A stretch of 64,000 nucleotides of DNA from Nanobdellota archaeon (GCA_043818675.1 JBDRFR010000069.1:14877-78876), one strand, 5' to 3'. Positions 7,519 through 31,500 are shown, numbered from the stretch's first letter. Numbers and translations: made by a program. The notes: generated by a model from the sequence alone, not told the origin.

Positions 7519-10500
7519 TTGATTATGGCTGCTAGTTGGTTGAATAAAGCAGGGAAAAGTAAGGTTTTGGTAGCTTTAGCTTTGTTTTGCTTACTGTTAG
7601 GGATGTTTGGCGTAGGGTTATATAATGTAGGAGCCAGTCAAGACGAACTACTAATTGAAAGAGAGAACTTGATTAATGAGTTAGGGAATTATTCATATTT
7701 ACTAAACACATCACTTAAGATTGATCATATATTTGTTGAGAATTATTCTTGTTCTTCAGTTGGATATCATACTGTTAAGGTTTTGACAGAAGGAGTGCAT
7801 GATCAATTATTTAAGTTTGGTGATGTTAATGCGTCAGCGCATAATCTGGCAACGTATTCATCCAGTATAACCAATAACACGATAATATGGTATCATTTCA
7901 ATAATGATTCTTCTGTATATGAGAATTATGGAACTGAAGAGTTAACTGCAGAAGATAGTATGGTTTTATTATTCCACTTTAACAATGATTCTAGTGTTGG
8001 TGAGAATGATACGCATGTTTATGATTTTTCAGGGAATGGGAATAATGGAACTGTGACAGGTGCTGTTTATAATTCTAGTGGGAAGTTGAATGGAGCGTTT
8101 GAGTTTGATGGTGATGGGGATTATGTTGGAACAAATTTTAATACAGATATCCAGAACTTTACTGTTTCTGTTTGGGCTAAAAGTCTGTCTGCTCCAACAA
8201 CAGGGGGTGTATATACAGCGGTTCTAGGAAGGGAGGAGAATTTTATTATTTACTGGGATGCTACAAGTGGCACATTTGATGCTACTGTTGCTTATAGGAA
8301 TTCAGCGGTTGGATGGACAGCTTCTGATTTTGGTCCTGTAAGTGCGAATGTATGGTATCATATTGTTGGGACTTACAATGGAACTACTTTGATTACTTAT
8401 AGAGATGGTGTTGAAATAGACACTTCTACATTTGGAGTTCCTCAGAGTACTTCTGATATGTTAGCAATAGGGGATTCTAGGGTTGGAGCAGGAAATTATT
8501 TCAACGGCTCAATAGACGAAGTAGCAATCTGGAACAGAAGCTTATCCGCAGCAGAAATAAAAGGCATTTACATGAGAGGGCTACCTGCACATGTTTATGA
8601 TTACTCACAATATAATAATCATATAAAAGCCAACAAAACTGATCCGTTTGAGCCAACCTTTACAGCAGCAGGTAAATATAATGGAGCGTTGGAGTTCTCA
8701 AAAGATGATTATCTAATTAAGGACAATTTCACATTAGTCGGCGGAAACGGAACAATATCATTCTGGTTCAAGCTCAAAAATAATTATGATTCAGCCAAAG
8801 ATAAACATATGATACCTTGGGAATACAGGGAAGATGATACCCCAAATAAAATGGTCATCAGGTTTGACGCAGGGACTGGCCAGTTAAGGCTTATAACATA
8901 TCCAGGTTCAGATGTACTGACAGATTCAGATGCAACTTCTTGGACAGCAGGTGTCTGGCATCATGTTGCATGGGTACATAACACTACCCATACTGTGATG
9001 TATGTAGATAATGTGTTACAGTCTGATGTTGACACAGCAACAGTTTGGTGGAATGACTTTGCAACAGAAAATAGTACGCTGTATATTGGAGCCGAATATT
9101 ATAGTGGAAAAATACAAAGTTACTTCAACGGAACAATAGACGAATTTATGTTATTTAACAGAAGCTTATCAGCAGCTGAAATATCAGACCTTTATGGTGG
9201 AAAAGCAATAACAGGATTGACTATATGGGATGATTCTGATAACAAGAAAGTATACGCAAATTACACTAAATTCTATGCAGACTATAATGACTCAAGCGCT
9301 AAGACAGCCATATACGGCGGCGGAAGATGGTGCGAGTTTGCGTTTAATAAGACAAACCTAGACTGGAGCATATATACCTACATCAATATGACCTTTAACC
9401 CCAACACATTAAGATATGAATTGATAGCCGATGGCGGTTATTTCAATAACCAGACAGAAAAACACATAGATGGTATGCCAGCTGGACAGTATTATTATAA
9501 TATATCCTGCTATGATGAGACTGGAGTTTATCAGAATGTTTCAGTTGTTGATTTTGTTAATGTTTCTGAATATGATACAGGTTTAGGTATTACGACAAGT
9601 GTTACTGCGCCTGATGTTAACCAAAATGTTATTTTTTATGCAAACTATTCAAGAAATGATGTTTGGGATGTTGATAATTGGGTTTACGGTAATGAGATTG
9701 GGAGGGTTGTGTGGAATAGTAGTTCTATAGGTAATGAAAGATATTATGATGCTATCCCGGCAGTGTTTGTTGATTTTGACAACGATGGTAAAAAAGATGA
9801 ATTTGTTATCTCTGATGGTAACTCAGGGACAATATATCCTTTTTATTCAAACGGTTCACAAATGGAATGGACAAACACACAACAAGGATATGACTCTGCA
9901 GAAATATCTGTTGGAGATTTGGATAGGGATGGTTATGAAAATGAGATAGCAGTTGGAGATTGGCTGAGCGGAACAAGTGATGTGATAATAATTAATGAGA
10001 CAGGTGCAACAGTCTGGTCAGCTGTGAGTAATGGACAGCCAATATATGCTATTGAAATTGATGATTTAGAAAATGACGGATCTCCAGAAGTTGTATTCGC
10101 TAAGACTACAGTCTTAAGCGTCTATAATATGACTGGCTCAGAAATTTGGAATTATACTCTGCCAAATTATGCTTTGGAAATAAGAATGGCGGATGTTGTG
10201 GGGAATGAAAATAAAGAGATTATTGTAGCTACTGCTTATGGGGATAAATTGATGGTATTTAATTCCTCCGGTACTAATTTATGGAACTATACTAATGGAA
10301 ATGATCCGATTTCGATTGCATTCGCAGATATTGACCATGATGGTGTTGATAACATTATTACAGGGATGAGGACCGGAAACCAAGTATATGCAATGAATGG
10401 TTCAGGATCTATGCTTTGGGGAGGGAGTAGTCTTAGCGGAGTTGCCGGACAGATAAATGAGCTTGCCACTATGGATTTGGATGGGGATGGGTATGAAGAT

Positions 10501-13500
10501 GACATTGTGGTCGGAGACCAAGCTGCTGTTAAAGGATATGATAACGATTCAACCAATCTATGGAATTTTAATTTACCCTCGGATGATATATCCTCAATCT
10601 CCGTAGGAGACATCGATAGCGATGGTGATAAGGAGATTATTGCAGGGGGCCTTACAGACGGTACAGTATGGGTACTTAATAGAACTGGCAGCTTAGAATT
10701 TAGCTATAAAATTGGAACCGGCCATATTGGAAATACCTTCTATGCAAGCTCTCCATCAACTGATATTTCTGATGTTAATAATGATGGAATAAATGATATA
10801 GGTGTTGGTATCTATCTAACTAGTGATGATAGTTATGGATATATCTTCCAGGACGTCTCCTGCACAATAAAATTCAACGATTCTGCAACTATTTATAACA
10901 TGACATGGGATTACGTTACTGACAAATGGAATTACTCAAGAACGTTTTCGAATAATGTTGTCTATGCATATAATGTAACCTGCAGTAAAGGTGGCTATGT
11001 AACTCAAATCCAGGAATCAACAGTTGATTTAACACAGACCTTAATAATATGGGACGACTCTAACTCAAAAGTAACATATGCAAATTACACCAAATTTTAT
11101 GCAAATTACACCAAATCAAACGGAACCCCATTGACAGGCAGCGGTGAATGGTGCGAGTTTGCATTCAATAAAACAGGCCTTAACTGGAGCTTTTATACCG
11201 CCTATAACATGAGCTATAATCCAACTACAAAATTATACGAGATAATTGCTGATGGCGGCTATATTAAAAATAACACAGAATCGCATATTGGCGGGATGCC
11301 TGTTGGCAATTATAGCTTTAATATTTCCTGCTATGGCGGCAAAAACTTAACAGCAACAGACACAGTAAATGTTGCTAAGTATGATACAGGTTTATCTTTA
11401 ACACAGTCAAATGTTCATGCTGATATTAACACAGATGTTGAGTTCTTTGCTAATTACACAAGAGATACTGTATGGAATGTGGACAACTGGTTCAGAGATT
11501 CAGGAGAAATTGGCAGAGTTATATGGAATAGCAGTGATGTTGGAAACAGTCTTGTTGCACTAAGACCAGCTGACTTATCTAATGACGGATATCTGTCTGA
11601 TATAGTTACAGTAAATGACTACAAGATTATTGCACACTATCAAAACGGATCAGTAAGGTGGACTTTTTCAACTGGAGTTATCCAACAGGCAGGATCCTTA
11701 AACATTGTCAATCTGGATAACGACGGATTTAAAGATGATATAATTACAAAATTCTCTTATAACATATTTGTCCTTAATAAGACTGGTGATCAACTAAACA
11801 AAACAACTGTTGCAGACGGCGGTTGGGGAATTGGAGTTGCTGGTGATGCAAATAATGACGGAATAGAAGATGAGTTAGTAGTATCAGGCGTAAATTCTAA
11901 TCCGGCAATATTATACAATATATCTAACAGCGGACTTTCTGTTGTTAAACAATGGAATTTTTCAGTACCAGATGATATGAGGGAAGTAATATTCGGAGAT
12001 TTTGACTCAGACGGTTTGGATGATGATTTTGCAATTAGTGGAGTTGATTCAGGAAAAGGAACTTATGTTTATAAATGGAACGGGACAAATTTATTTAATG
12101 TAACTTATGGTGGACTTGCTATTGCCAAAGCTGATATTGACCATGATGGTTTTGAAGATGATATAGTGATTGCAGAAAACGGCAATTATCTTGTTTATTC
12201 TTTTAATGGAAGCTATAATACAAAATACACAAGCACAGATGAAGCAATGGTATACAATACAGATCCAATATCAGTATCCGCAGAGATGATTGTACTGGAT
12301 TTGGATTCAGACGGATTTAATGATGACATCATACTGGGAGATAGAGGCGGAGCAGCTGGACCTGGAATTGTCTGGGCATTTGACAACAATAGTATTGGAT
12401 TGTGGAATATCACATTACCTGCAAACGGAGATGATGATTACATCTATTCCATGGTCGTTGATGATTTTAATAACGATGGTAAACAAGAATTGATCTTTTC
12501 CAGTGAAGAGTTTGATAAAGTTTATGTTGCCAATCTGTCAGGATATGTACTTTGGGACCAGATCATTGGACAAGGAGATATCTCAGTGATTAAAGGAAAA
12601 TCTCCTGGCATCATAAGTATTGACATAAATAAAGATGGAATTTCTGATTTTGCGACCGCTTCCGCAAATGGTTTTGTCCATGTTCTGCAGGACGTATCCT
12701 GCACAATCCAATATGAATCAGAAGGTGGAGAGATTAACAGGACTGGTCAGAATTGGGAAAATGGTTTAGTTGCTCTATATCATTTTAATAATGAGTCTGC
12801 ATATGGCGAAACAACTGTTGGAGTTAATAATGTAACGTATGACTTTGCACCAGGTCACTGTTATGATAACGAAACAGAAATACTAACTAATGAAGGCTGG
12901 AAATTATTTTCAAAATTAAATAAAACTGAGCAAGTAGCAACATTAAATCAGGAAACAAAAGAATTGGAATGGCAGCATCCAATGGAATATCAAGAGTTTG
13001 ATTATGACAATGATATGTATAAGATTATATTGGAGGATGGATCAGATTTACTTGTTTCAGAAAAACATAGGGTTTATGGAAAATCAGTAAGCATCATCGT
13101 GATGAGTGAAATCTTCAAAGATGATCTTATTTTCTCTGACCTGGAAAGTCAGGACAAAATGCCCCACATGAACTCTTTTGAGATGGCTCAAATCCCCTTT
13201 GAGGTTCTTAAGGTGATTGATGGTGACAATATCCATTTCAGAAATTTGGATAATTTTTCTACTCAAAGCTTTGAAGAGAACAGGGTCTTTTCTCTTAATC
13301 TTGATCAGAGCCTTATCAATCTTGGAAATGTCAATATTCATAATTCATCCAGCCACTTTTTTAGTTCTTCGGGAGTCATTGCCTTGCCTTTAGCTGGGTC
13401 TTTAGATATTTTCTTTAACTTTTCTATGAACTCAGGCTTCATAGGAAATTCATCTAATGGATGCCAGTCAATAGATTCACAAAACTGCTCATCTTCCCTA

Positions 13501-16500
13501 GTTAGTTTCCTTGATACACGAAATTCTTCAAATATTCTTCGCTTGTTCAATTCCTCTCTAGCTGCTTCAGACCAGTTTATCCATGGAAATGCTTCAATTC
13601 TTGCCTTAAAGGATTTGTCTACAGGATATATTATACTAGCCATTTATAATTCACCCCTTGCCCTTAATTTTTCTAATGCTTCTAATTTCTTAAGCACACC
13701 CTGTTTTGCAACTTCAGACCAATTAATGTCAGGATGCTTGTCTAACTTTGCCTTAAAATCATCAGGTACTGATATAGTAAACCTTTCCATTTTTGATGCC
13801 TCCTGGATGATACAAGATAATAAAATTTTGGGTTCATCCAACAATTGTATTACTAAACACAATTGTGTTTATAAATCTTTTGATAATTTCAAGTTGATGC
13901 CTATAACTGATGCGTATGGGCTAATCAATTCAGGAAAACAGGTTTATTTCCTGGATGGTTTTAATAATGAGGTTAAAGTTAAGTCGATTGTTAAAGAAAA
14001 GTACAATGGCAGAATATATGATGTCGATGTAAAAAATGATGTTGTTTTGGTAAGAAGGATTGATAGGAATAATCGCACAAATAATTATGATAAAAAAGCC
14101 ACGCAAGCAGGAAAAAATTCATGCCACAATTCTGGGAAATATTGTTATGATAAAAGGACTAAGGAAAACTTCTTTTCTGAAAATGAGGATGGTTTGGGTA
14201 TATTGAGTGAGAGGGGTTATGAAACTAATTATTATGGTATATGGTCTGGGAATAGCAATAACGGAACTATTTATGGTGCTACAGTTGATATGACTGGTGG
14301 GAAGTGGAATGGGAGTTTGGAGTTTGATGGGGCGGGGGATTATGTTGATGCTGGAGATACATTTGATATGGGAACAAATGATCTGTCATTATCTGTATGG
14401 TTTAAAACATCTGATAGTGGTTCAAAAATTAAAACAATTATTTCAAAATCTTATGCATGGGATACAGGTGCATATAATTTGATTATTACTGCTGGTAATA
14501 ATCTAAGACTTCATGCTGAGAATAATACTGGTCAGGGTGAAGTAGATATAATAAGTCCTCTAACTTATACTGATGGACAATGGCATCATGCAGTAGGTAT
14601 TTTTGATAGAGATAAAAATGCAATATTATATGTTGATGGATCTGAAGTTGGTTCAACAACAATGGCAAATATTCTTAATCAGGATCTGGATACTACCTAT
14701 TCATTTAGAATTGGAATGTCACATTGGAATAGTTGGCCCAGACCTTTCAACGGCTCAATAGACGAAGTTGCAATTTGGAACAGAAGTCTTTCTGAATCTG
14801 AAGTCTGGGACTTGTACATGTCGTCAGCACCAAAATATAACATGACATGGGACTATACAAGAAAGAAATGGAACCATACAAAACAGTTCACTTCATACGG
14901 TAATTATACTTACGGAATAACATGCGAAAAAGGCGGCTACACAACCCAAAGAAGCTCAAGTTATGTTGATCTAACCCAATCATTAACAATATGGGATGAT
15001 TCTGATTCAAAAACAGCCTATGCAAATTACACCAAATTTTATGCAAATTACATAAGATCAAACGGAACAGCAATGAACGGAAACTATTGGTGCGAGTTTA
15101 AGTTCAATAAGACAGGCAGATGGACAAAACCAGTCAATATGAGCTTTAATCCAGTAAGCTTACAATATGAAATAATTGCTGATGGCGGATATATTCAGAA
15201 TTCAACTGAAACGCATATTGACGGGATGCCTACTGGAAATTACAGTTACAATATCTCCTGTTATGGTGGTGAATATAAATCACTAACAGATACTGTAAAT
15301 ATAGCAAAATATGATACTGCACTTGCTTTAACCCAAACAAACATCCATCCAAATACCTATTCAGATGTTGAGTTCTTTGCTAATTACACAAGGGCTACTG
15401 TATGGGATGTAGACAACTGGTGGTGGGATACAACTGAGATTGGGAGGGTGGTTTGGAATACAAGTGCTCTTGGAGGGAGTTCACATACTGTTGATTTCTT
15501 TGATTGTTTGAATAGTGGAAAGAAAAATTGCCTTGCGACCACAGAATATTCTGATATCTGGATGTTTTATCCAAATGGAACACAGATTACAGCATCTGGA
15601 ACTGCCTCAAATCCAGGAGGAGATTTATTAGATGCTAATGTTTTTGACGGAGATGGAGATGGTTATGAAAATGAGGTTCTTATTGTTGGAGATAATAATC
15701 AGGTTTTAGTTGTTAACGAGACAAGAAATACTGTGTATACCTATACTGCTGGAGGAGATATTTTTTCTGTTGTTGGAGCTGATTTAGATAACGATGGAGT
15801 CAAAGATGATTTTGTTATTGGTGCTTATACTGGGTCTGTTTATCAGGTCATGGCATTTAATACTTCTGATGGAGTTAATTGGGTGAATTTTTGGAACGGA
15901 ACTGTTGGAGGAGTTATTCAGGAAATGGTTATTGGTGACTTTGATAGAGATGGAAGGGAGATTGATGTTGCTGCTACAGGGACTTCGAATGGAAATGTTA
16001 CTGTTTTTGTTGGGGATAATGGAACATTGATATTTAGTACTGTTGACCTTGGGGCATTATCTTCACTTACAGTGTCTGATTTGAATCATGATAATTACAA
16101 TGATGAGATAATCGTGGGGGAGACGGGTGCCACTAGGGTTCTTGCGTTTAGGTGGAATGGGACATGGGGAGCAGAAATGCAAGATACAGACAATGATACT
16201 AATGGTTGGCTTTGGTCAAACACTCTTCCAACATACAGTATTACTGAAATTGATACTTTTGATGCAGATTTAGATGGTTACAAAGATGAGATTATTTTTG
16301 AAGATGGAGGCAGTTCATCAAACTCAAAAATTTGGGCAGTGGATGAAGAGGGCAACTACTTGTGGAATTTTACATGGGGGAACACAATTGATGTTTCATA
16401 TAGTCTTAATGTTGCTGATGTGAATAACGATGGAAAGGATGAGATAATTTTTGGACCTAGGAATGCTGCTACATTGTATGTTTTGAATATCTCTGGAGAT

Positions 16501-19500
16501 TTATTGTGGAGTTATCCTCTTAATCAGGGTTGGATTGGTAATGCTTATGGAACTTCTCCAGGGATAGATATTTCAGATTTGAATAATGATGGTATAAATG
16601 ATATTGTAGTTTCAACTAATACTGTGGGTTATAAATATATTTTCCAAGACGCTAAATGCTCAATCCAATACGAATCAGAAGGCGGGGAGATTAACAGAAC
16701 AGGTCAGAATTGGGAAAATGGTTTAGTTGCTTTATTTCATTTTAATAATGAAAGTGCATATGGCGAAAACAGCAGCTATATTTATGATTTCTCAGGTAAT
16801 GATAACAATGGAAGTTGTACAGGTACAACATGCCCAACCTTTGATACAACTAGTGGAAAGTGGAATGGTAGTTTTGAGTTTGATGGCGTGGATGATTATG
16901 TTGCAATGTCTCAGGATGATAGTCTAAATTTTTCAGGAGATAGTGAGATTACCATTTCCTTTTGGGCTAAACTTGTATCAGCAGATAATAGGCATGCTGT
17001 TATTGGGGCGTGGGATGGTGAGTCTGGTTCTACTTCTGCTTATCTCTATATGGACAATTCTGGAGCTAATGGAATTATTATCAAGAATACAATAGGAGGT
17101 GATACTGGAATTAGAACATCAAGCACATCTTTTAATTTAAACACTTGGTACCACATAGTTTATACTTTTAATGGTGTCTTAGAGACAGTCTATCAAGATG
17201 GCACTCAAATTGATACAAATGATATAAGTGGAACCATGCGTAATAATGGTGAGACAGGTCCTTGGGTAGGTCATGCAATGAATGATGGAACAACTCCAGT
17301 ATATTTCAACGGCTCAATCGATGAAATCGCAATCTGGAACAGATCATTATCCGCATCAGAAGTTTGGGATTTGTATATGTCATCAGCACCAAAATATAAC
17401 ATGACATGGGACTATACAAGAAAGAAATGGAACCATACAAAACAGTTCACTTCATACGGTAATTATACTTACGGAATAACTTGCGAGAAAGGCGGATATA
17501 CAACTCAAAGAAGCTCAAGCTATGTTGATCTGACTCAGTCATTAACTATATGGGATGATTCCGATTCAAAAACAGTCTACGCAAATTACACCAAATTTTA
17601 TGCAAATTACAAAAGATCAAACGGAACCGCATTGAACGGTAATTATTGGTGCGAGTTTAAGTTCAATAAAACAGGTATATGGACAAAACCAATCAACATG
17701 AGCTTTAATCCGGTTTCCCTACAGTATGAGGTAATAGCAGATGGTGGATATATCCAAAACTCAACTGAATATCACATTGACGGTATGCCAAACGGTTATT
17801 ATGGGTATAATATAACATGTTACGGTGGTGATTATAAATCATTAACAGATATGGTCAATGTTTCTTTATATAATACAACTTTGGGAGTCAGCAGGAATAA
17901 TCTTGCGCCAGAGGTGAACGTTGTTACAACATTTTATGCAAACTATACAAGAAATGATGTATGGGATGTTGATAACTGGAAATTGGGACATGAGATTGGG
18001 AGGGTTGTTTGGAATACTAGTTGTCCAACATGCGGCAGTGTTTCTGCTATACCTGAATTTGTAGACTTCAATGAAGACGGTAAGAAAAGTGAATTATTCA
18101 TTCTTGCTGATGGTTTCCCTTATGCTATTTCAAGTAATGGTTCTAAGATCTGGACAAGTTCAACAGAGAGATATGTTCCTAGCCAAGCAGTAGCTTTTGA
18201 TGGAAATGGAGATGGATATGATAATTATGTTGTTGCAGTTGAGGATGTAAATTCTGGTTCAGGTATACGTGTGTATAACAGTACAGGGAATATCATTTGG
18301 GAATGCGGCTTTCCCGGAGACTTTATGTCTGTTGTTGCAACTGACTTAGATAATGATGGAAAGAAAGATGATTTTGTTGTAATTGATACATATACTCCTG
18401 TGGGTAATGTTTCCGCATATACTACTACTAACGGGCAAACATGGGTGATTAATTGGAGCCATATATTTCCAGCGACTAATACCGCAGATGGATCTATTAA
18501 GATAGGAGATTTAGACAACGATGGAAAAAAAGATGATTTTGCAATTGCAGGTGTGGAATATACGATTGCCCTAAATGAAACTGGAGGCGTTATATGGAAC
18601 ACAACTGACTTAGTTGATAGAGTAAATGGTGTTGGAATTGGAGATTTTGACCATGATGGTTATGAAGATGATGTGATTGTAGGGAATAGGGGATATTTAT
18701 ACATCTTCACTTTTAATGGAACTTATGGAGTTACATATACTACAAATGATGCAATTGCATCTTCTTCCTACCCTAACAGTGGAACACAATCAACTGTTAC
18801 TAGTATAGTTGTATTTGATTTGAATAATAATGGATTTAAAGATTCATTTGCTTTATCAGACATAACATATGATTCCATAGGTGTTTTTGACAACAATACT
18901 AATAATGTTTGGTTCCACAATACAAATGATTTTGGTGATGGAAGCATAGATGTAAATACTGTACGGGCAAGTGATTTTAATAATGATGGCAAAGATGAAC
19001 TGATGTTTGGTGCAGATAACGGGCTTATATATATTTTTAACAGCACAGGTTCTCTTTTGTGGAAATATGTTTTGATAGATCACGTGGGGGAGTCTTCTAG
19101 AGAGGATGCCGTTAAATCAGGCGACATCAATAATGATGGAATCTCTGATTTTGTAGCTGTCACTGTGAATTCTTACACTTACATATTCCAAGACGTATCC
19201 TGTTTCATAAGATTCAACGATTCAACATCAGTCTACAACATGACCTGGAACATAACTTTAGACAAATGGCAGTACCAAAGGACATTTCCTGACGTATCAA
19301 GATATAAATACAACATCACCTGCTCAAAAGGCGGATACATTACACAGTTTACAAACACTTCTTTTGCAACAGAAGACGGAAACCCAAGATGGAGTTCAAA
19401 TAAGACTAACCTAACAAGAAATTCACCATATTTAGCAGATGTCCATTTCAACATTACATTAAATGACATCAATCCAGCATCATACATATTCAGCTGGTAT

Positions 19501-22500
19501 AATGGGACTGCATGGGAGAATAATTCCCCTGTAAGTTATGATGATAATACAGAAATCTCTGTTACAAAAACATTAAACATAAGAAACGAATCTGCTGCTA
19601 TCAGCTGGACATTCTACTTTAATGATACTGTTGGAAATAATAATCAAACAGATGTATGGAGCATTACAGTTGATAATATACTGCCAAGGATAGATTATTC
19701 AGGTGGAACTAACGCAGATGGCGAAAACATAGCTAAAAATTATATTTATGTCAATGTATCAGTTACAGAAGAAAATGTTGATAAGGTATGGTTTAACCTG
19801 TACAATGATGATTATTCTTTGAACAAAAGCATGATACATGGTGAGTTACCAAATTATAGACCTGAGACTTATATTAATATGACCGGCAATGTACTTTTAA
19901 TGCATTTTAATAATGACAGTTCTGTTAGAGAGAATTCAACACATGTTTATGATTGGTCAGGTATGGGGAATAACGGGACTGTTTATTTTAATTCATATCC
20001 AAACCTAACAAACCCTAAGCTTGGTTTAGGAGCATTTTCATTTGACGGAACTGATGACTTTATCAATATATCTGACGTTCCATCATTAAGGTTAACTTCG
20101 ACAGGTACAATATCTATGTGGATCAAACAAAGCGGTGCAGACCAAGATCCATACGCTACATATGTAGGAAAAACCAGGGGTGGTGTGACAGCTACAATTG
20201 CATATATTCTTTACCATAGAGATTCAGAAGGTACAATTAGGGGAACTATCTGTAATGATGCTAACTGTGACTTGATCCAAACACAGGAATTTGCTCAATC
20301 AGATGTTGATTGGCATCATCTGGCATTTACATGGGACAGCGTAAACTTATCTTTATATAAAGACGGCATTTTGTTTAATAAGACCCCTCAAACCCGAAGC
20401 GTAGATAATGATGCAGGAGATCATCTCAAGATTGGCGGATATGGTTTCAATGATGTGGGAAGTGATGATTTCAGCGGTTTAATGGATGAGGTTGCAATCT
20501 GGAACAGAAGCTTAAGCGCAGATGAAATAAGAGACATATACGAGATCCAGAAATCTGCATATTACCATAACTTTACAGTATCAGACGGAACATATCATTA
20601 CAATGTTACAGTCAATGATACTTCTGGTAATCAAAATGTTACAGCAACAAGAAGTGTTTCACTGGATCCAACTTATCCTAAAGTTTCATTTGTCTCTCCA
20701 ACTTATAGTGATGGTAAGTTTACTAAGAATACTTCTATTCCAATAAATGTAACAATAACAGAAGCTAATCTTGACAGGATAATATATGAATGGGATGGTG
20801 TTAATGAAACAGACTTCAAGCTGGATGCGCCAATAACTGAAGTAAACTTTACAGTCTCAAGCTTAGAAACTTTAACTGTAAGTAACGGTTCCCATAAGAT
20901 TGATCTGTTTAATGATAGTTCTCTTGTGTTGGCTATGAGTTTTGATAATTTGTCTGCTCTTGGAGAGAATGATACTCATGTGTTTGATTGGAGTGGGGGT
21001 GGGAATAATGGGGCTGTTTATGGAGGAACTGACGCTGATTCTGGTTTCACAACGAGCGGGAAATATTCAGGAGGACAGATGTTTGATGGGGAGTGGGATT
21101 ATGTTTTTGTTAATGATTCAGATGTATTCAGTGGAAATTTGGCGATATCTTTATGGATAAATGCAAAACAATGGAGTACAGATGGAACACTGGTAAGAAA
21201 ACTAGATGAGTGGCAATTAGATATTAATGATGGTACTGTGGTTAGATTTTGTGATACTGCGGCATGTAGCGATATTGCTACTTCTGAATTGAGTTTAGGT
21301 AAATGGTATCATGTTGTGGGAATTAGAAATAGTTCTGGAGTAGAGTTATTTGTAGATGGGATAAGTCAAGGATATGTTGCAGACCCAATTGCTTCAAGAA
21401 CAACTAGTCATGTTTATATTGGTGCAGAGGAAGGAGCGTTTGACTTTTTCAACGGCTCAATAGACGAAGTAAGAATCTACAATCGTTCTCTTTCTGCCTC
21501 AGAAGTTGCAATGCTTTACAAATCTAATCTAAGAAAATACGACGTAAACAAATATAATTTATTTTTCAACCAATCAGGAAATTTCAGTTTAACCTACAAC
21601 ATTAATCAAAACACAACAATCAACCTAAGAAAAAACAGCACCAGAAACTACTGGCTGGATATCAATAAGCAAAGTTTAGCTGATGATTCCTACGCTTACA
21701 GAGTATTTACAAAAGACGACATGCAAAACTGGAACAGCACAGAGCAAAGAACAGTAAATGTTGACCTGGAAAGCAGGATTGTATTAGGCGATGACTCAAA
21801 CAACAAAAAAGTTTATGCTAACTACACAAGATTCTATGCAAACTTTACAGATGTTGAAAACAATACAATAAACGGTTCAGGGTATTATTGTGAGTTTGCT
21901 TATAATAAAACAAACCTGGCATGGAACAGATATACAGTAACAAACATGAGCTATAATCCAATTACAACACAGTATGAAATCATAGCAGATGGTGGATATA
22001 TACAAAATGCAACAGAGAGTCACATTGATGGAATACCTGTAGGACTTTATTATTATAATATAACATGCAAAGACTCAAGCGGGGGCTACACAGCAATCTC
22101 AACTGTTGACCTTGTTAATGTTTCTGAATATGACACAAACATAGCAGTAACCCAATCAAACATCCATCCAGATACAAACGCAAATATCGAATTCTTTGCA
22201 AACTATACAAGGGATACTATGTGGGATGTGGATAACTGGTGGTGGGATACTAAAGAAATCGGAAGGATTGTGTGGAATAGTAGTGAATATGGTGCGCTTT
22301 CAGATACTGTGTATTTTGTTAAGGCTATGGACTTAGATAATGATGGAGAAATGGATGAAATTGTTATAGGGGGTATACCCACCATGGAAGCTTTTAGTTC
22401 AAATGGAAGCTGGATTTGGTCAAAAGCCGTTCATAATTATGATACACATTTTGAAGTATGGGATCTAGATAACGATGGCTATAAAAATGAAATCTTAACA

Positions 22501-25500
22501 GGAACAAATGGGGGCGATGTAAAAATTATTAATGAATCTAGTGCAAATGTTGCAGTATGGAATAGTTATAGTTATGGGAGTAATGGGGGGACTATGATAT
22601 TAGGAGATCTAGATAATGATGGATTTAAAGATGATTTTGTAGCTGTAATAGATACAGGCAGCGTTAGAAAAATTCTTGCTTGGAATACCTCAGATTATGT
22701 AACCTGGGTCAATTTTTGGAATTATAGCCTTCCTCATGACATTTATATAGATCAATTAATAGTATCTGACTTGGATGGTGATGGGGATGATGATATCGCA
22801 GGCTCGGTCACTGCAAATGATCCAAGATCGTATACGTTTGCCTTAGTAGGACACAATGGATCCGTACTTTGGAATACCACATCCAATTATGACCAACTTT
22901 GTTATTCATTGATTGCTTTAGATATGGATCATGATGGACTTAAAGATGATATAATTACCGGTTGCACAGGAGATATACATAATTTTAGTTTAAATGGAAC
23001 TTATGGAGCAACATATACTCCTTCGTTATTTAATAATTCACCAACTGGAAATATTTTAGAAATAGCAGCGATTGATTTGGACAATGATGGATATGAAGAT
23101 GAGATTATTGTAGGTGATACAGGAGTTTATAACACTGGTCCAGGATATGTAAGAGCTTTTAATAAAAATGGAATTGAAGAATGGAATTTTGAATTGCCTC
23201 CCACAGGTATTGCTGATGGGGACGATATTGCATCGCTGGTTGTGGGAGATGTGAATAGTGATGGGAAAAAAGAAATAGTGTTTGGTAATGAACAGCTTGA
23301 TACAATTTATGTTTTAAACAAATCAGGATCATTATTGTGGGAATATAAAATTGGATTAGGTAATATCGGATCATCAAGCGATGAATCACCAGGTATTGAT
23401 CTGACTGATATCAACAACGATGGTATTCTTGATATTGTAGCTAGTTCACTAACAGGTTATGCACACGTTCTTCAAGATACAACATGTACAATTCAATACG
23501 AATCAGAAGGCGGAGAGATAAATAAAACAGGAACTAATTGGGATGATGGACTTGTAATGTTAATGCACTTTAATAATGAATCAGCATACGGTGAAACAAC
23601 AGCCGGAATTAATAATGTAACATATGACTTTTCAGGTAATGGCAATAACGGAACAATATATGGTGCAACGTTTAATGCAACCGGTGGTAAATGGAACGGA
23701 AGCTTTGAGTTTGATGGGATTGATGATTATATTGAATTAACAGATATGAACATTAATGATGAATTCACAGTTTCAATGTGGTTCAAAGCTAAAAAGTTAC
23801 AAGACGGCGCTACTTTAATTGGTGATTTGGACAATATTGGAGGTAATGAGGGTTGGTCCATAAGATACTTAACTTCACTAGGTAATGAATTGCACTTCAG
23901 TTTTGATGGAACTACATGTGGATGGACCAATTACGACCTTACTGGGATTAATCCGGATAATGACAACACTTGGCATTTTATTTCTGTTGTCTTTACAAAC
24001 AATACTGTCTCTTGGTTTTATGATGGAACTACTGAAGTTGATAGTCACAGTCAGCAATGTGTAGTTGAAGATTCTAATGAGAATATCAAAATTGGCGTCG
24101 CTTCCAGAGATACTTTCCCAATAAGTGCAAGCGGACACTTCAACGGCACAATCGATGAAGTAGCAATCTGGAACAGATCATTATCAGCTGCAGAAGTTTG
24201 GGACTTATACATGTCATCAGCACCCAAATACAACATGACATGGGACTATACAAGAAAGAAATGGAACCAAACAAAACAGATAACGACATACGGCAACTGG
24301 ACTTATGGCATAACATGCGAGAAAGGTGGATATGTAACCCAAAGAAGCTCAGGTTATATTGACATGACTCAATATTTGACAATATGGGATGATTCTGATT
24401 CAAAAACAGTTTATGCTAATTACACTAAGTTTTATGCTAACTACACAAGATCGAATGGAACTGCATTGAACGGTAACTATTGGTGTGAATTTAACTTTAA
24501 TAAAACTGGAATTTGGACAAATCCAGTCAATATGAGCTTTAATCCAACAACAACACAGTATGAAATAATCGCTGACGGCGGATACATACAGAATTCAACA
24601 AAAACGCATATTGACGGGATGCCGGTTGGAAATTACAGTTATAATATAACATGTTATGGTGGGGATTATAAGTCTCTAACTGACACAGTTAATATTGCTG
24701 AGTATGACACAGTTTTATCAATACTTAATGATACAGATAAAACTGTTGGAGAAAAGATAAAATTCTATGCTAACTATTCAAGAGTTGACCCATACAAAGT
24801 AACTAACTGGAAATTAGGTAAAGAGATTGGGAGGATTGTTTGGACTGATAATTTAACAACTGACACAGAATTGATATCTATTACGTCTTATGATATGGAT
24901 AAAGATGGAAAAAGAGATGAACTTGCAGCTGCGGTAAGGGATCAAAATACCGGAGAATTAGCCTATTTTTATCCAAACGGTACATATAAATGGATCTATT
25001 CAGTTTCCTGGGATTTTACAGAGAGCATATTTGCAGGAGATTTAAACGATGATGGTTACTATAACGAGATATATTATCCAATGGTGGGTGAACCCGCAAT
25101 ATTTAATGAATCAGGAGACCAGGTGTGGACAGGCAGCATCACTTACCCGGCAATGCAGTTTGAGGGAGCCTTACTTCTGGATATTGACGGAGACGGACAA
25201 AAAGATGATCTGGTTGTGGTAAATGCTACTGGTGTGTTTGCATATAATACATCTGATGGGATTACCTGGCATAATTTATGGAACTATTCTCACCCAATCA
25301 GTCTTGGCTTAAACAATCTGTGGGATGCTGCTTCAGGAGATCTGGATAATGATGGTAGAGATGATATTCTGTTGGGAACATATCTCCCTCCCAATTTATA
25401 TGTGATCAATTCCACCGGTAGTCAAATGTGGAATTATTCCTACATACAATACGGACTGGCAGTTGAATTGATAGATCTTGACAGTGACGGCAAAAAAGAT

Positions 25501-28500
25501 GAAGTTATCCTGGGTAGTCTATATCAAATTATCCATGGTATAAATGGGTCTGGCGGACATCTGTGGAACATATCTGGCGGAAATCTCAGGCATTATGAAC
25601 TTAATGTTCTTGACCTGGATGATGACGGATTTGAAAATGATTTTGTTGTAGGTGATGCCAATGGAAATGTCACAGCATATAATGCTTCTCTGACAAACCA
25701 TGACATGATGTGGTCAATTGATCTAAACGGGGTAGGGGCTAATGATATCTATTCAGTTTCAAATGCAGATATAAATAATGATGGAATAAAAGAAATTCTA
25801 GTGGGTGGAGAAGATGCAATTTTATGGGTTTTAGATAAGTCAGACGGAAGTGTCCTGTGGGATTATACTGTCGGAACAGGAGACATTGGATCAGGGGCTG
25901 GAAAATCCAGAATAACAACCACAGATATAAACAATGATGGAATAAACGAGATTATTGTGGCATCACGAACAAACGCACAAATCCACACCTTCCAGGATGT
26001 AAACTGCATCATAGAAATCAGCGACGGAACATCAGCTGACATGAATTATAACTCAACCTCCAGAAAATGGGAATACAATAAAACATTCATTATTGCAGCT
26101 GACTACGAATATAATGTAACCTGCACAAAGGGAGGATATACTGAACAGGTACAAAGCTCTACTTTATCAGTTGCAAGCTTAAGGACATATCATCAGCCGT
26201 CAGCTGTTTATTCAAACTATACAAGGTTTGTCGCTAATTTCACTGAAGGCACTGGCAAATGCAGGATGAAATACAATAAGACAGGCATATGGAGCAGCTG
26301 GCATAACATGAGCTGGAATGGGACGATAAACGCGTTTGAGCTTGAAGCTGACAATGGGTATAGAAGAGGGCATATGCGCTCAATGCCGGCCGGAACTTAT
26401 GACTATTATATTGACTGCAATAACTCTTTAGGCCAGGCTGTAAATGCAACAGATTCGATAACTGTAAATGATTATGATACAAACCTATCAATATCAAACA
26501 CTAATAATAATCCAGTTATCGACCAACCTATCATTTTCTATGCTAACTATTCAAGAGTTGATCCATACAAAGTAGATAACTGGAAATTAGGAAATGAGAT
26601 TGGACAGGTTGTATGGAATACAAGTGATATTGGCACAAATGCAAATGCGATCGCAGCCATTGACCTGAACAATGATGGAAAGAAAAATGAGTTAATAATA
26701 GTAATGGACAGTGATATTACTGGCTTGTATGCAAATGGCAGTGAGAAGTTCAGCCAGACTTCTGGCATAGGTAATTCAATCTTAGATATAGCTGTTGGTG
26801 ATTTTGACAATGATGGTTATGAAAATGATTTTGCAATTGTAAGAGGCGCAAGCACCCTCGAGGTGTTTAATGAAACAGGCCAGGAAGTATGGGAAAGCGG
26901 CGATTACGGATCTACGCCTGCAATACCGGCTATAGGAGACTTTGATGGAGATGGCATCAAGAATGATTTCTTTATGATGGATGGCGGAAGTGTTTTTGTT
27001 TTTAACTCAACAGAAGGAAAGGTTTGGAGCGAGAGATGCAGCATTACGCATGGTGCCAACGTTTATGCTGGATATGATGCTATAACAACTAGAATTTATG
27101 ATTCATCTAAAGATGATATAGTTTTTGTTTCCAGTGAGAATAGTGCAACACCTGGCATTTGGGCGATTAATACATCATCTATTGGAACATGCAAACAATA
27201 TTATAATGGTTCAGGGAATTTATTTAGATCACTTGATGTTCTGGATATTGACCATGATGGAATTGAAAATGAATTTGTTGTAGGTGAAAATGGAGATGTA
27301 CTTGTATTTAATTTAAGCTTAGATATAATCCTTAGTGATTCTACACCTGATGATAATATTTGGGAGATCAGAAAAATTGACCTGGATAATGATGGATTTA
27401 AGGATGATTTTGTCGCTTCAGAAGATAATCCTCCAAGAATCAGGGCGTATGATAATAATTCTGATTTGAACTGGACATTTAATACTGGCGAATCTGCAGG
27501 AGTGTCTATCTTTTCGATGGAAATAGCTGATGTTAATAATGATGGAATAGAGGATATTTTATTTGGAACAAGCACTGGTATTGTTTATGCTGTTAATATT
27601 AGTGGAAACTTAATGTATAAATATGATATTCAATTAGGAACAATCGGAAATGACAACTCAAGAGCTTCATCAACAGACATCTCAGACATAAACAACGACG
27701 GAATAAATGATGTAGCAGTTGCATCCTTTGATGGCTACGCACACATCCTTCAGGATTCATCCTGCACTATAAAATTCACAGACGGATCATCATACAACAT
27801 GACCTGGAACATAAGTAAAGACAAATGGCAGGCAAACAAATCATTCAGATTAGCAGGGACATACAGCTACAATATTACATGTAATAAAGGCGGATACATA
27901 TCACAAAACCTAACTGCAAGCATTACAGCTGCAAAACAAGGTTCATTCTGCGATTGGGGAAGCTTAGCTACAACATGCCATATTAATACAAGCATAACTG
28001 TAAAGAATAACTACCAATTAAACGCATCCAACATAATAATCCATGAGCTTGGAAACCTATACAATAATTCAGGCATAAGCTTCATAATAAATCTAACCGG
28101 AAACCTAACAATAAAAAGCAGCGGAACAATCAATTTATCCGCAGCAAACTGCGCAAGCGGAACTTGCACAAACGGCGGAAACCTGACAATTATTGCATCC
28201 ACATTCAACCTAAGCAGGGGTTCATTTATTTATTCCAATGGCGGCTCTTTAACATCTGATGGAACCAAGGGTGGTAGTGGAGGAATAATAAATATCACAG
28301 CCAGATCATTCTATTTTGACGGAAATATAACATTAGATGGTGGAGATAATGCAGGAACATACAGTACTGGAGATGGAGGCATAGGTGGCACCATGGTTAT
28401 AGATGTTAATACCAACCTTAACATAGGTGGTAATCTGCTTGGAAAAGGCGGAACCGGAAGATCAAACATCTGCGCTGCAAATAGCGGCAGCAGGGGTAAT

Positions 28501-31500
28501 GGTGGTAAACTGATAATTAATGAAAACAATCTTAACCTGACAGTAAACGGAATTATTGACTTGCCTCCTGGAGAAAGAGGATATTGTGCAAATGGCACAT
28601 TTGGTGCAACTGACCTAAACATAAATACCTTAACTGTAAGCCAAAATGGGCAGCTTAAGATTGGAGGAACAATCAACTCATCAACTATAACCATAAGCGG
28701 TATTTTAGGACCAAAAGAAAGTTTGGGCGGAGACGGCAGGGTAAGCAGAAATAACGCTAGTGAACTGACAATCCTAAGCAATGTTTTAAATTTAACTTCA
28801 GGTGGAATAATTACAGGCAAAGGCCAAAGTGAAACAAACAACCTTGACTATTATTCAGGAACAGGTGCCACAATAAACATTTCAGTTGCAACCTTCTATT
28901 TTGATGGAAATATATCGATCGAAGGCGGAGAAGACTCAAGCGGAAATACTAACGGCGGAGGAGATGCAGGAATTTTGTATTTGGATGTGAATAGTAATTT
29001 GATTGTTAATGGAAACATTTTAGCAGATGGCGGAGTTGGAAGACCAAATGTCTGCGACAGTACAACTACAGGACATAGGGGGAGTGGTGGAACAGTCATC
29101 ATTAATGAGCCAAACCATAACATTAGTTTAGTAGGTCAGATTATTTCAAATAGGGGCACTACTGGACTTTGCGATGACGGCTCCGGCGGAACAATAAATA
29201 TCACAGCATCAGTATTAAACATAACAAACAACATTGAAGCAAAAGGAAACATCTCAGGAAATATTAACCTAAAAGCAGTCAGATTATACATTAACTCAAC
29301 ATTAAACGTAACCTCGGAAACAAATGACCAAAACGGAACAATAAGGATAACTTTCAAAGACAACTTCAACGCAACATATTCAAAGATTGAACCGGTTACA
29401 TACTTAGAAAGAAACACAACAGATGGAATGGTTTCTTTCTTACAATCATTTAACAGAAGATTAAACTCTACAATCCCGTATGAAAACGCAATAACTATAG
29501 CTTACAACAAAATAAACATTAACTCCACGAAATACAAAGACTTAAACAAGTCTGCCGATATAAAACTCTACAGCGCATTCGTCGGCGATATCAGGTTATT
29601 AAAAGACGGATTATTATGCACCTCCTGCAATCTAAAGGATTACTCGTTAGGCACTGCATACTTCAACGTAACATCGTTTACCAACTATTCGATAATCGGC
29701 AACACTACTTTAGTCTTATTTGATTCAGAGTATGATGTTCACCCGTTAAGCAATAACCCGATTATTTTCCAAAATGAAGTGGCCATATTCTACGCAAACT
29801 ATACAAGAAACAACGATAGTATTATTCTAACCGATGCAACTTGCGTTATTTACTTTAACGACACACAATCATGGACAGCTATGAGTTATAAGCCTGATAA
29901 ACAGTTGTTCTCGTATAACAGGACCTTTACAGCTGGCGGCAACTACACATGGAACACCAGCTGCGGCAGATCAGACTATTTAACCCAGTCAACAGAAGAT
30001 AACATATCAATCTCCGCTAACACCCCTCCTGTAATAAACTCTGTAAATATTACTATCAACAACAGTCTTTCAACTTTAGCCTATACTAACTCAACCTTAA
30101 ACTGCATGTTTAATATTACCGATATGGACGAAGGAGAACTTGTAAGAGCGAATATCACCTGGTTTCGGAATTTAGGTGATGGTTATATCCCCTGGACAAT
30201 GGACAACGAAGACGAGATTACCATAACACACAATATCTCGATGAACACAACATCAGGCGACATTGAGCCAGGCAAAACCAACCACAGCGACAGCTGGATC
30301 TGCCAGGTTACAGCATACGACTTATATAACGGCACCTCAATAACAAACTCCTCACCGTTGACAATCCAAAACTACAGCACTGTTTTAGTAATCTTTGACG
30401 AAGAAACAGACATTGAACAGCACAGGCGCTCAAACACAAGCACAATCTACAAGTTCCAGAACACCTCATTTTATGCTAATTACACCTTAAACCATCAGAT
30501 CATAAATCCTGCAATCTGCAGTATCTATTTCAACGATTCAGTAAGCATCAACATGACATACAAAGACACCCTATATTATTATAACAGAACTTTTACAAAA
30601 GGCGGCAATTTCACATTCAATATTACGTGTAAACGGTTCAATTACACAACAAAGACCAACTTTAGCTGGCTATGGATAACCTACAACTCATCACTAAGCA
30701 TCTTTGACCAGGAATCAGACGAAGAGACCAACCTATTAAGCAATAATGAGATCTACCAAAACGAAAACAGCTTTTTCTACGCAAATTATACAAGGGACGA
30801 TGATAACGCAACGATTACACAAGGCAATTGCACTATCTCTTTTGATGACAAAAAAGCCAACATGAGCTACAACACAAGTTTGCAGCTATTCACATACAAT
30901 AGGAGTTTTGCAGTCAGGGGCACTTATACTTGGTCAATAAATTGCACGACTAAAGGCTACGAGCAGGAGAACAAAACTTCCAGTATAACGGTTCTCTCTG
31001 CCGAGTTTGAGCATATTTATATTACACCCGAGATAGCATACAGCTCTGACAATCTGACTTGCATAAACACTACTGTAACGAATCAGGGCTCGGAAAATTA
31101 TACATTGGTCTATGAGTGGTTTAATGACGACGTTAGGATTGCAATTCTGGATTTAGCTTCCGATGGATCGGTAACACGTAACAACCAGGGCCAGGGAGCT
31201 GCATCTAATGCAATCGACAACAACCTGGCAACAGTTTGGCAGACAGACGAATTATCACTTGGCTGGATAAAGTTCACATTAGATAATACAAGAACCATCG
31301 GCAAATTAGACTATACGTTTAACGGTTCTGGCAATAGGGATAATTTCAACATATCATATTCAACTGACGATTCCACCTACATTACATTATACAGTTCACT
31401 GTCCGACCCAGGAAACGAGGTTACAATAACAAAAACCTTCGACCCTGTAAACATGAGGTATATCAGAATTGATTTCAGGAGCGGCTCGACCCAGGAATTT

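Follow-up and report, generated by a model that had tools for sequence, protein, structure and literature searches.

How can a 36-kb gene be read without a stop through an operon that lies on its opposite strand? The question is raised by a 64,000-nt stretch of DNA from a Nanobdellota archaeon (GCA_043818675.1, JBDRFR010000069.1:14877-78876; the window, in what follows), in which three minus-strand genes forming a toxin–antitoxin (TA) cassette lie within a giant plus-strand surface-protein gene, between the two lobes of an intein-type HINT domain. Our analysis suggests that the element is probably an intein that carries an antisense TA operon in the slot of the homing endonuclease, its reading frame kept open by selection and its polypeptide excised by protein splicing, with the TA operon providing for its persistence. 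Coordinates of the features are collected in Table 1; all genomes compared were metagenome-assembled genomes (MAGs).

Codon choice across the antisense operon

Translation confirmed that the host open reading frame (ORF), 12,098 codons encoding a 12,098-aa protein, has no stop anywhere, the cassette included, as a sequence-only reading of the window had proposed. The toxin gene, which encodes 85 aa, is in codon register with the host gene, and the 101-aa and 48-aa genes of the cassette are offset by 2. TTA, CTA and TCA codons in the toxin gene would read as stops on the host strand, and its eight Leu and four Ser codons comprise 0 TTA, 0 CTA and 0 TCA; in the genome as a whole, TTA and CTA make up 33% and 10% of Leu codons and TCA 28% of Ser codons. 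The absence of the two Leu codons had been pointed out before, and the avoidance turns out to include TCA as well. In the host frame, the toxin’s own TGA stop becomes a Ser codon (TCA).

Synonymous resampling of the toxin gene under the codon usage of the genome, a shuffle that the sequence-only reading had set as a test, gave 4.6 sense stops on average, with P(open) = 0.0027, making a chance open frame over this gene unlikely. For the two offset genes, P(open) was 0.34 and 0.71; they add little information, since their protein sequences allow few stops in that frame. The giant gene is thus readable through the operon because the toxin, in codon register, is devoid of TTA, CTA and TCA, and because the other genes lie in an offset frame that rarely gives stops. 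Among 2,103 segments of 798 nt from ordinary genes of the genome, any antisense frame was open in only eight (0.4%). GC and AT skew reverse sign over 13150-13900, the sole such island in the giant gene, and the purine-skew islands within the genome’s 26 giant ORFs coincide with six intein loci and no other places.

These six loci, all in giant ORFs (contig C69, three in C8, C124 and C162), belong to two sequence types. Between them they contain eight antisense TA modules (five RelE-type, three VapBC-type), every one stop-free in the host frame. The VapC-type cargo of C162 encodes a PIN protein that matches PIN_2 at 5.6e-14. Five toxin paralogues, 33–51% identical in protein and 65–68% in DNA, contain no forbidden codon, with P(open) between 0.0017 and 0.0087 for each. 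A free-standing, distant RelE-like pair in the same genome (C155:221-789 of G000; 84-aa antitoxin, 96-aa toxin) shows ordinary codon usage and antisense stops, and serves as an internal control.

Relatives of the toxin cassette, 203 in a one-genome-per-species collection, occur in Nanoarchaeota, Altiarchaeota, Thermoplasmatota, Nanohaloarchaeota and MAGs labelled Methanosarcinales, with named relatives being mostly Nanoarchaeota or Woesearchaeota MAGs. The sequence-only reading had suggested looking for the cassette in free-standing form, and 49 of the 80 loci examined proved to be of this kind, with stops in all antisense frames; the alignment used for this locus scan did not include the divergent C8b copy or the C8a copy. 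The embedded arrangement recurs in other archaeal genomes from several phyla, at 16 or more Hint-flanked loci, all stop-free.

For codon counts, 84 toxin genes were sorted by their Hint flanks, a codon-independent property; antisense open length as a class would have been partly circular with the counts. The 19 Hint-flanked genes contain TTA or CTA at 0/146 Leu codons and TCA at 0/97 Ser codons, and the 50 free-standing homologues at 131/390 (34%) and 58/267 (22%), respectively, with equal Leu plus Ser content in the two groups; related copies are not statistically independent in this comparison, and synonymous sites are saturated at these distances. A third group comprises 15 toxin genes that are stop-free and for which the search found no Hint flank. 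Inspected by eye, some of them adjoin block B vestiges or frameshifted pieces of large genes, and we read these genes as decayed or transitional states.

An ordinary insertion lacking stops by luck, or a giant ORF that is a dead gene, would be compatible with the two antitoxin genes taken alone, where an open frame is not unlikely. As an account of the locus, such a coincidence is nevertheless extremely improbable: the low probability for the toxin gene is repeated in five paralogues and in 19 Hint-flanked genes, none with a forbidden codon; control segments are so rarely open; the host frame stays open for 36 kb with recognizable domains throughout; and assembly duplicates are an unlikely source, the DNA of the paralogues being just 65–68% identical. 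As the constraint is kept in diverged copies across genomes, we attribute it to selection, and these sequence comparisons support the view that selection on the cassette codons keeps the host ORF open. Two DNA metagenomes (groundwater and biofilm) provided short Logan contigs that show zero differences over 12605-13063, 13151-13348, 13354-13507 and 13549-13748; these contigs fail to span the whole element, and the metagenomes may include the source sample.

The cassette as a toxin–antitoxin operon

The cassette is a type II TA operon, ordinary apart from an extra ribbon–helix–helix (RHH) gene. Its three coupled minus-strand genes, the ATGA overlap joining the end of the 101-aa gene to the toxin start, the Shine–Dalgarno sequence GGAGG and the INWSE(V/A)A motif common to the 48-aa and 101-aa proteins were all confirmed in coordinates and sequence as they had been described from the window alone. 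Homologous cassettes carry GAGGT or GGAGG at the same place. A TATA-like box sits approximately 60–75 nt upstream of the RHH start in ten cassettes, embedded and free; read in the host frame, it encodes the conserved IYKSF (the YKSF column of the intein alignment). We infer that the two palindromes between this box and the start codon are candidate operators, and comparable pairs are present in embedded and free-standing homologues. The 48-aa RHH protein is likely the repressor of the operon.

Profile searches for the RelE/ParE and RHH families, as called for by the sequence-only reading, did return matches, all of them below the curated cut-offs. The toxin matched TIGR00053 YafQ (37.2 bits, E 3.4e-9, cut-off 87.25) and ParE_toxin (15.3 bits, 0.03, cut-off 23); the 48-aa protein matched RHH_1 (16.9 bits, 0.006, cut-off 20.5) and TA_anti_VapB_Sulfo (25.2 bits, 1.9e-5, cut-off 60); the 101-aa protein matched DUF2683 over its C-terminal part only (21.7 bits, 2.5e-4, cut-off 27). 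The RelE/ParE assignment of the toxin comes from its modelled fold. Its AlphaFold model has a predicted local distance difference test score (pLDDT) of 91, and the Foldseek matches listed are without exception type II TA toxins, almost all from the RelE/ParE superfamily (YafQ at 8.5e-4, YoeB with a TM-score of 0.77, RelE, HigB and ParE). A nine-member toxin profile searched against the PDB recovered YafQ (E 0.011), RelG and RelE3 at E values of 0.01–0.04, and the toxins share a conserved C-terminal HHD.AY motif. According to the model, therefore, the toxin has a RelE-type alpha/beta fold.

The profile of the 101-aa antitoxin gave no meaningful match against the PDB; its alignment reveals a conserved C-terminal half beside the RHH-like N-terminus. 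Complex modelling of the toxin with this protein reached a score of 0.82, compared with 0.01 for the best of three controls. The mark used was reached by 58/80 solved complexes and 2/110 mismatched pairs, counts that apply only roughly here because the complex was modelled from our own alignments. At least 94% of contacts are common to the runs, the partners have a pLDDT of at least 87, and antitoxin residues 52–101 are placed around the toxin, including its HHD.AY motif. The 101-aa antitoxin is thus predicted to bind the toxin, and the pass may in part reflect likeness to solved RelE-type complexes.

A HINT domain around the cassette and its exchangeable cargo

The boundaries of the intein were set by comparison with homologues from other genomes. 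It begins at Cys1 (12859-12861; GH/CYDNETEILT...), contains the S-x-x-H of block B as S-E-K-H at 13057-13068, and ends with Gly-Asn at 14248-14253, followed by the +1 Ser at 14254-14256. The end had earlier been placed near a block F-like region at approximately 13881, which does not hold: the element runs on to the Asn at 14251-14253. C1, S67, H70, the block F Asp D388, WSGN and the +1 Ser are invariant in eight aligned copies (the window and seven homologues), which are 41–49% identical, and WSGN/S, found in 8/8 of these, is present at further loci as well. A type-2 element without a proper block G, with VLVKRN... taken as its end, was considered and dropped, since the cross-genome comparison puts the true end at WSGN/S. 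Asn, Lys and Cys are abundant in the extra F–G loop, whose opposite strand contains no notable ORF.

AF2 modeling of all 465 residues gave a pLDDT of 80–88 for the N lobe (residues 1–76) and 71–88 for the C lobe (residues 343–403). The 266 residues between them, which are the reverse-complement reading of the cassette, reach only 24–34. After the low-confidence parts had been trimmed, a fold search aligned the model with approximately 30 solved inteins, bacterial intein-like (BIL) domains and Hedgehog Hint domains (Z 14–17.5, root-mean-square deviation 1.7–2.7, 123–140 residues). In VIA-align the matches span model residues 1–465 and include full-length inteins with an endonuclease in the same slot. 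Modelling thus supports the view that the two flanks together make up a complete HINT fold, into which the cassette read-through is inserted as a disordered segment. An empty counterpart of the site exists within the same protein: a paralogous, uninterrupted repeat, NNVTYDFSGNGNNGTIYGAT at giant aa 5370, runs colinear with the product predicted for splicing, NNVTYDFAPGH + SNNGTIYGAT. Together with the motifs, this repeat identifies the element as a discrete insertion with every sequence hallmark of a splicing intein but the penultimate His.

To place the cargo in context, the 75-residue N lobe was searched in 401 genomes of the phylum, with matches in 26. The stronger matches lie in LamG- or Ig-rich surface proteins, every one with antisense cargo: L100, L102 and L126 have RelE-type modules, L103 a VapBC-type module whose PIN protein is 137 aa long, and L101 just RHH genes. 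The weaker matches fall in the genes for carbamoyltransferase, NrdD (anaerobic ribonucleotide reductase) and MCM; these are inteins that share the block motifs and carry LAGLIDADG_3 in frame between blocks B and F. At the level of sequence comparison, copies in giant surface-protein genes hold antisense operon cargo in the slot where housekeeping-gene inteins hold LAGLIDADG. Given that same-phylum homologues have LAGLIDADG in this slot, we conclude that TA operons replaced the endonuclease as intein cargo. The occupation of the endonuclease slot by a TA module, first proposed from the window alone, is now backed by the HINT fold of the flanks, the LAGLIDADG homologues, the recurrence of the arrangement and the empty paralogous site.

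A tree of concatenated antitoxin and toxin sequences intersperses embedded, vestigial and free cassettes, its strongly supported branches forcing at least 8–9 state changes, and toxin clades A and B, separated by the deepest split (99% support), are each present in both intein types. A shared frame layout was rejected as a sign of common descent, since just one antisense frame of the cassette is free of stops and any tolerated insertion must use it.

The complete unit of promoter, operator and Shine–Dalgarno sequence facing the host gene, together with the antisense orientation of every embedded copy found, could also mean that the cassette has been domesticated as a regulator, with antisense transcription colliding with or silencing the distal 30 kb, and stress-induced decay of the antitoxin turning the surface protein off or truncating it. 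We consider this improbable. The same promoter layout is present in free-standing copies and hence is no adaptation to the embedded state; inteins differ freely from one another in the type (RelE or VapBC), number and position of what they carry, as fits selfish cargo better; and the antisense orientation is also explained by the cassette’s own three stop codons, which would truncate the host if the operon were inserted in sense.

The type-1 inteins of the genome are fully canonical (Cys1 ... TTGNHPY ... IIAHN/T) and lie in C8 (5438-6886), C124 (5256-6614) and C162 (3857-5341), at a different site in the same kind of protein, with RelE-type or PIN_2 plus RHH genes as antisense TA cargo. One type-2 intein of C8, at giant aa 980–1927 (L005, L007), reaches approximately 950 aa and contains three antisense TA modules (VapBC, RelE-type, VapBC). 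Between the modules lie two partial copies of the Hint N lobe, the host frame is open over 2.8 kb, and the whole looks like the result of unequal recombination between cargo-bearing inteins. The same series of three antisense-open cassettes (VapBC, RelE-type, VapBC) is found at L024:1522-4655 with no intact host gene; these have their own open antisense frames of 275–409 aa, each ending in IYKSFDFNENNL, and the array may represent a compound intein that has decayed, or else a reservoir. At L085:3-3704, the cassette lies within a 1,234-aa open frame, with a host direct repeat of approximately 40 aa on both sides and only a block B-like stub; here the read-through would remain in the protein.

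Several observations weigh against an intein that splices around a TA cargo. The intein profiles score below their curated cut-offs (Intein_splicing 18.0 bits vs 35.8; intein_Nterm, TIGR01445, 21.6 vs 24.5, 3e-4; Hint_2 17.3 vs 28.4, 0.0065), as the 266-aa insert splits the match. All three cassette proteins likewise remain under the Pfam/NCBIfam curated cut-offs, and as their individual scores are sub-threshold, the identities of the parts rest on folds, motifs and context. The penultimate His, which is also absent from some active inteins, is replaced by Gly in every type-2 copy. Among the eight aligned inteins (alignment A4), the F–G loop of approximately 54 aa occurs only in the window copy and L051. 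The 266-aa unstructured tether might hinder folding, and the host is a Sec-type surface protein, a class that seldom contains canonical inteins. The analysis found no transposase, integrase or nuclease to account for insertion of the cassette. Finally, embedded L019, L059 and L085 retain only an unrecognizable or vestigial Hint; as their frames are nonetheless open, an intein is not strictly required to tolerate the insert.

Some of these points would be expected if the Hint domain no longer spliced, or only cleaved in the manner of BIL domains, so that the read-through stays as a flexible linker or the protein is cut in two, the cassette having landed in a tolerant spot. The penultimate Gly, the loop ahead of block G and the open frames of L085, L059 and L019 fit such a domain, as do the best structural match, a BIL domain tied with true inteins, and insertion sites that vary between genomes in variable secreted proteins, as with BIL domains. 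We still regard loss of splicing as unlikely: Cys1, S-x-x-H, the block F Asp, the terminal Asn and the +1 Ser have stayed invariant in eight copies at only 41–49% identity, the BIL types lack either a +1 nucleophile or the Asn, both of which are present here, and the predicted spliced product is colinear with the uninterrupted repeat.

Table 1. Features of the embedded operon, the intein and the host gene, numbered from the first nucleotide of the window
Feature	Coordinates	Strand	Basis
Host giant surface-protein gene	7519..43815	+	ORF list, stop-free translation, Pfam
Intein (HINT domain), 465 aa	12859..14253	+	Motif mapping, 7-homologue alignment, AF2 model and fold search, empty paralogous site
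Intein N-terminal lobe, blocks A and B; block B VSEKHRVY at 13054-13077	12859..13083	+	pLDDT, TIGR01445, Hint_2
Toxin gene, 85 aa, RelE/YoeB/YafQ fold	13084..13341	-	ORF, profiles, AF2 model, Foldseek
Antitoxin gene, 101 aa; RHH-like N-terminal part and predicted toxin-wrapping C-terminal part	13338..13643	-	ORF, DUF2683, complex model
Small RHH gene, 48 aa, first in operon	13644..13790	-	ORF, RHH_1, VapB
Shine–Dalgarno sequence GGAGG, 8 nt upstream of the RHH start codon	13799..13803	-	Read from sequence
Two palindromes, ACAATTGT at 13841-13848 and ACACAATTGTGT at 13857-13868	13841..13868	.	Sequence; between TATA box and start codon
Archaeal TATA-like box AAAGATTTATA	13870..13880	-	Conserved upstream of RHH start
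Intein C-terminal lobe, including block F IYDVDVKNDVVLVRR at 14014-14058	13885..14067	+	pLDDT, motif mapping, alignment
Extra low-confidence loop, ~54 aa, between blocks F and G	14068..14229	+	Alignment, AF2 model
Block G, last strand, ends WSGN, then Ser	14230..14253	+	8/8 homologues, pLDDT 78

The host protein combines an N-terminal membrane anchor, at least 11 Laminin_G_3 domains, FG-GAP propellers, CARDB, NPCBM_assoc and a C-terminal HerA/FtsK-like ATPase, and Pfam domains are recognizable throughout its 36-kb frame. The P-loop ATPase occupies the last ~440 residues (42505-42984, plus strand; DUF87 2e-11, HerA_C 7e-9), a fusion unusual for an adhesin-like extracellular LamG/FG-GAP protein. 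A second ATPase gene, HerA/CedD/TraD-like (56097-58421, minus strand), overlaps the end of the gene for a 1,342-aa PKD/Big_13 protein (58418-62446, minus strand), and the two may form a DNA- or protein-translocation module tied to surface proteins. Genes near the host gene, encoding the RFC large subunit and aRF1, mark the organism as an archaeon. The genome (G000) is a 2.06-Mb, 63%-complete MAG with at least 13 ORFs longer than 2,500 aa, from an order with many small genomes (0.6–2 Mb). Its contigs C8, C9 and C124 are each one open frame end to end, indicating that giant repeat genes break the assembly.

Proposed role and relation to known systems

Under the reading we favor, a splicing intein with an antisense TA cargo, the giant mRNA would be translated through the reverse complement of the operon, yielding a Ser/Asn/Leu-rich disordered tether of 266 residues. 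The Hint lobes would associate despite this tether, and the whole 465-residue element would be spliced out, rejoining ...YDFAPGH to SNNGTIYG..., colinear with the uninterrupted repeats. The operon would be transcribed from its own promoter toward that of the host. Giant, fast-evolving surface proteins may offer no conserved homing site, and a TA operon could replace homing as the strategy of persistence: loss of the intein allele would remove the labile antitoxin and thereby penalize the cell by addiction. The intein, in turn, would give the cassette a site inside a gene where the insert is nearly free of cost to the host. The cassettes themselves may represent a lineage pre-adapted to life within an ORF, with one stop-free antisense frame, that has been swapped between inteins repeatedly.

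TA modules stabilize plasmids, integron arrays and genomic islands. By analogy, a role of the intein cargo in addiction stands at about even odds. Further still, we tentatively propose a distinct composite selfish element, termed an “addiction intein”. Such an element would have abandoned homing and would persist through its antisense TA operon, in partnership with a lineage of TA cassettes able to colonize coding sequence because one of their antisense frames stays stop-free. The pair would spread among the giant surface-protein genes of DPANN and other archaea, where standard gene callers overlook it by reporting just the giant ORF; we put the chances of this broader proposal slightly short of even.

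A full-text literature search, of incomplete coverage, found no account of an intein that contains a TA module or an antisense gene of any kind. The novelty lies in the combination of features: an operon antisense to a translated gene, placed in the endonuclease slot, with host-shaped codons, conserved across phyla. If true, this would be the first cargo of an intein to be something other than an endonuclease and to lie outside the intein polypeptide, and the first natural case known to us of a whole operon antisense within a translated gene whose read-through is disposed of by splicing. The three-codon avoidance, repeated across phyla, would make dual-strand selection visible and the persistence of inteins after loss of homing testable. 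Strand-skew islands inside giant ORFs could then be used to find nested TA genes, and TA inventories of DPANN and related archaea are probably undercounted. The arrangement could also serve as a natural template for gene entanglement and containment designs.

Among known elements, LAGLIDADG inteins (PI-PfuI and those of NrdD, MCM and carbamoyltransferase) share with the window intein the HINT fold and the cargo slot between blocks B and F, and the latter three also its block motifs (CYD..TEILT..GWK; ..H..; VY.V.VPNH..VRR; ..GN followed by S/T). By sequence, the window intein belongs to the LAGLIDADG intein family of DPANN. In contrast to the members with an endonuclease, the cargo described here forms no domain of the intein polypeptide but a three-gene operon in its own right, encoded on the other strand, and the residues it contributes in frame would be meaningless read-through. 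The window intein further differs in having no endonuclease, no evident homing, a variable surface-protein host and a penultimate Gly.

BIL domains have the Hint fold in common with the window intein; one of them, 2lwy, is its top structural match (Z 17.5, tied with true inteins). Like it, they reside at non-conserved sites in large, variable, repeat-rich extracellular proteins. BIL domains are bacterial; the A type lacks the +1 nucleophile and the B type the C-terminal Asn, whereas the window Hint keeps the C-terminal Asn and the +1 Ser. To our knowledge, BIL domains carry no cargo.

Fractured genes, reportedly described by Dassa and colleagues in 2009, are said to hold a free-standing endonuclease gene between split-intein halves. 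As in the window, a separate gene with its own expression signals would then lie between intein parts. In fractured genes, however, the host is broken into two ORFs that are joined by trans splicing, whereas the host frame of the window is continuous through codon choice and the cargo is an antisense TA operon.

RelBE, YefM-YoeB, DinJ-YafQ and VapBC share with the window cassette the RelE-superfamily fold, an upstream overlapping antitoxin, an RHH part, promoter palindromes and many free-standing archaeal homologues. The cassette differs from these systems in its third gene (the small RHH gene), in lying wholly inside another coding sequence and in having its codons shaped by the host frame.

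Finally, in synthetic sequence entanglement, as reported for example in PMC12455656, a toxin or containment gene is interlaced with a second gene. Two genes share DNA there as they do in the window, so that mutation of one is constrained by the other. Compared with this engineered arrangement, the window offers a natural and antisense counterpart that involves a whole operon, with a read-through that is presumably discarded by protein splicing.

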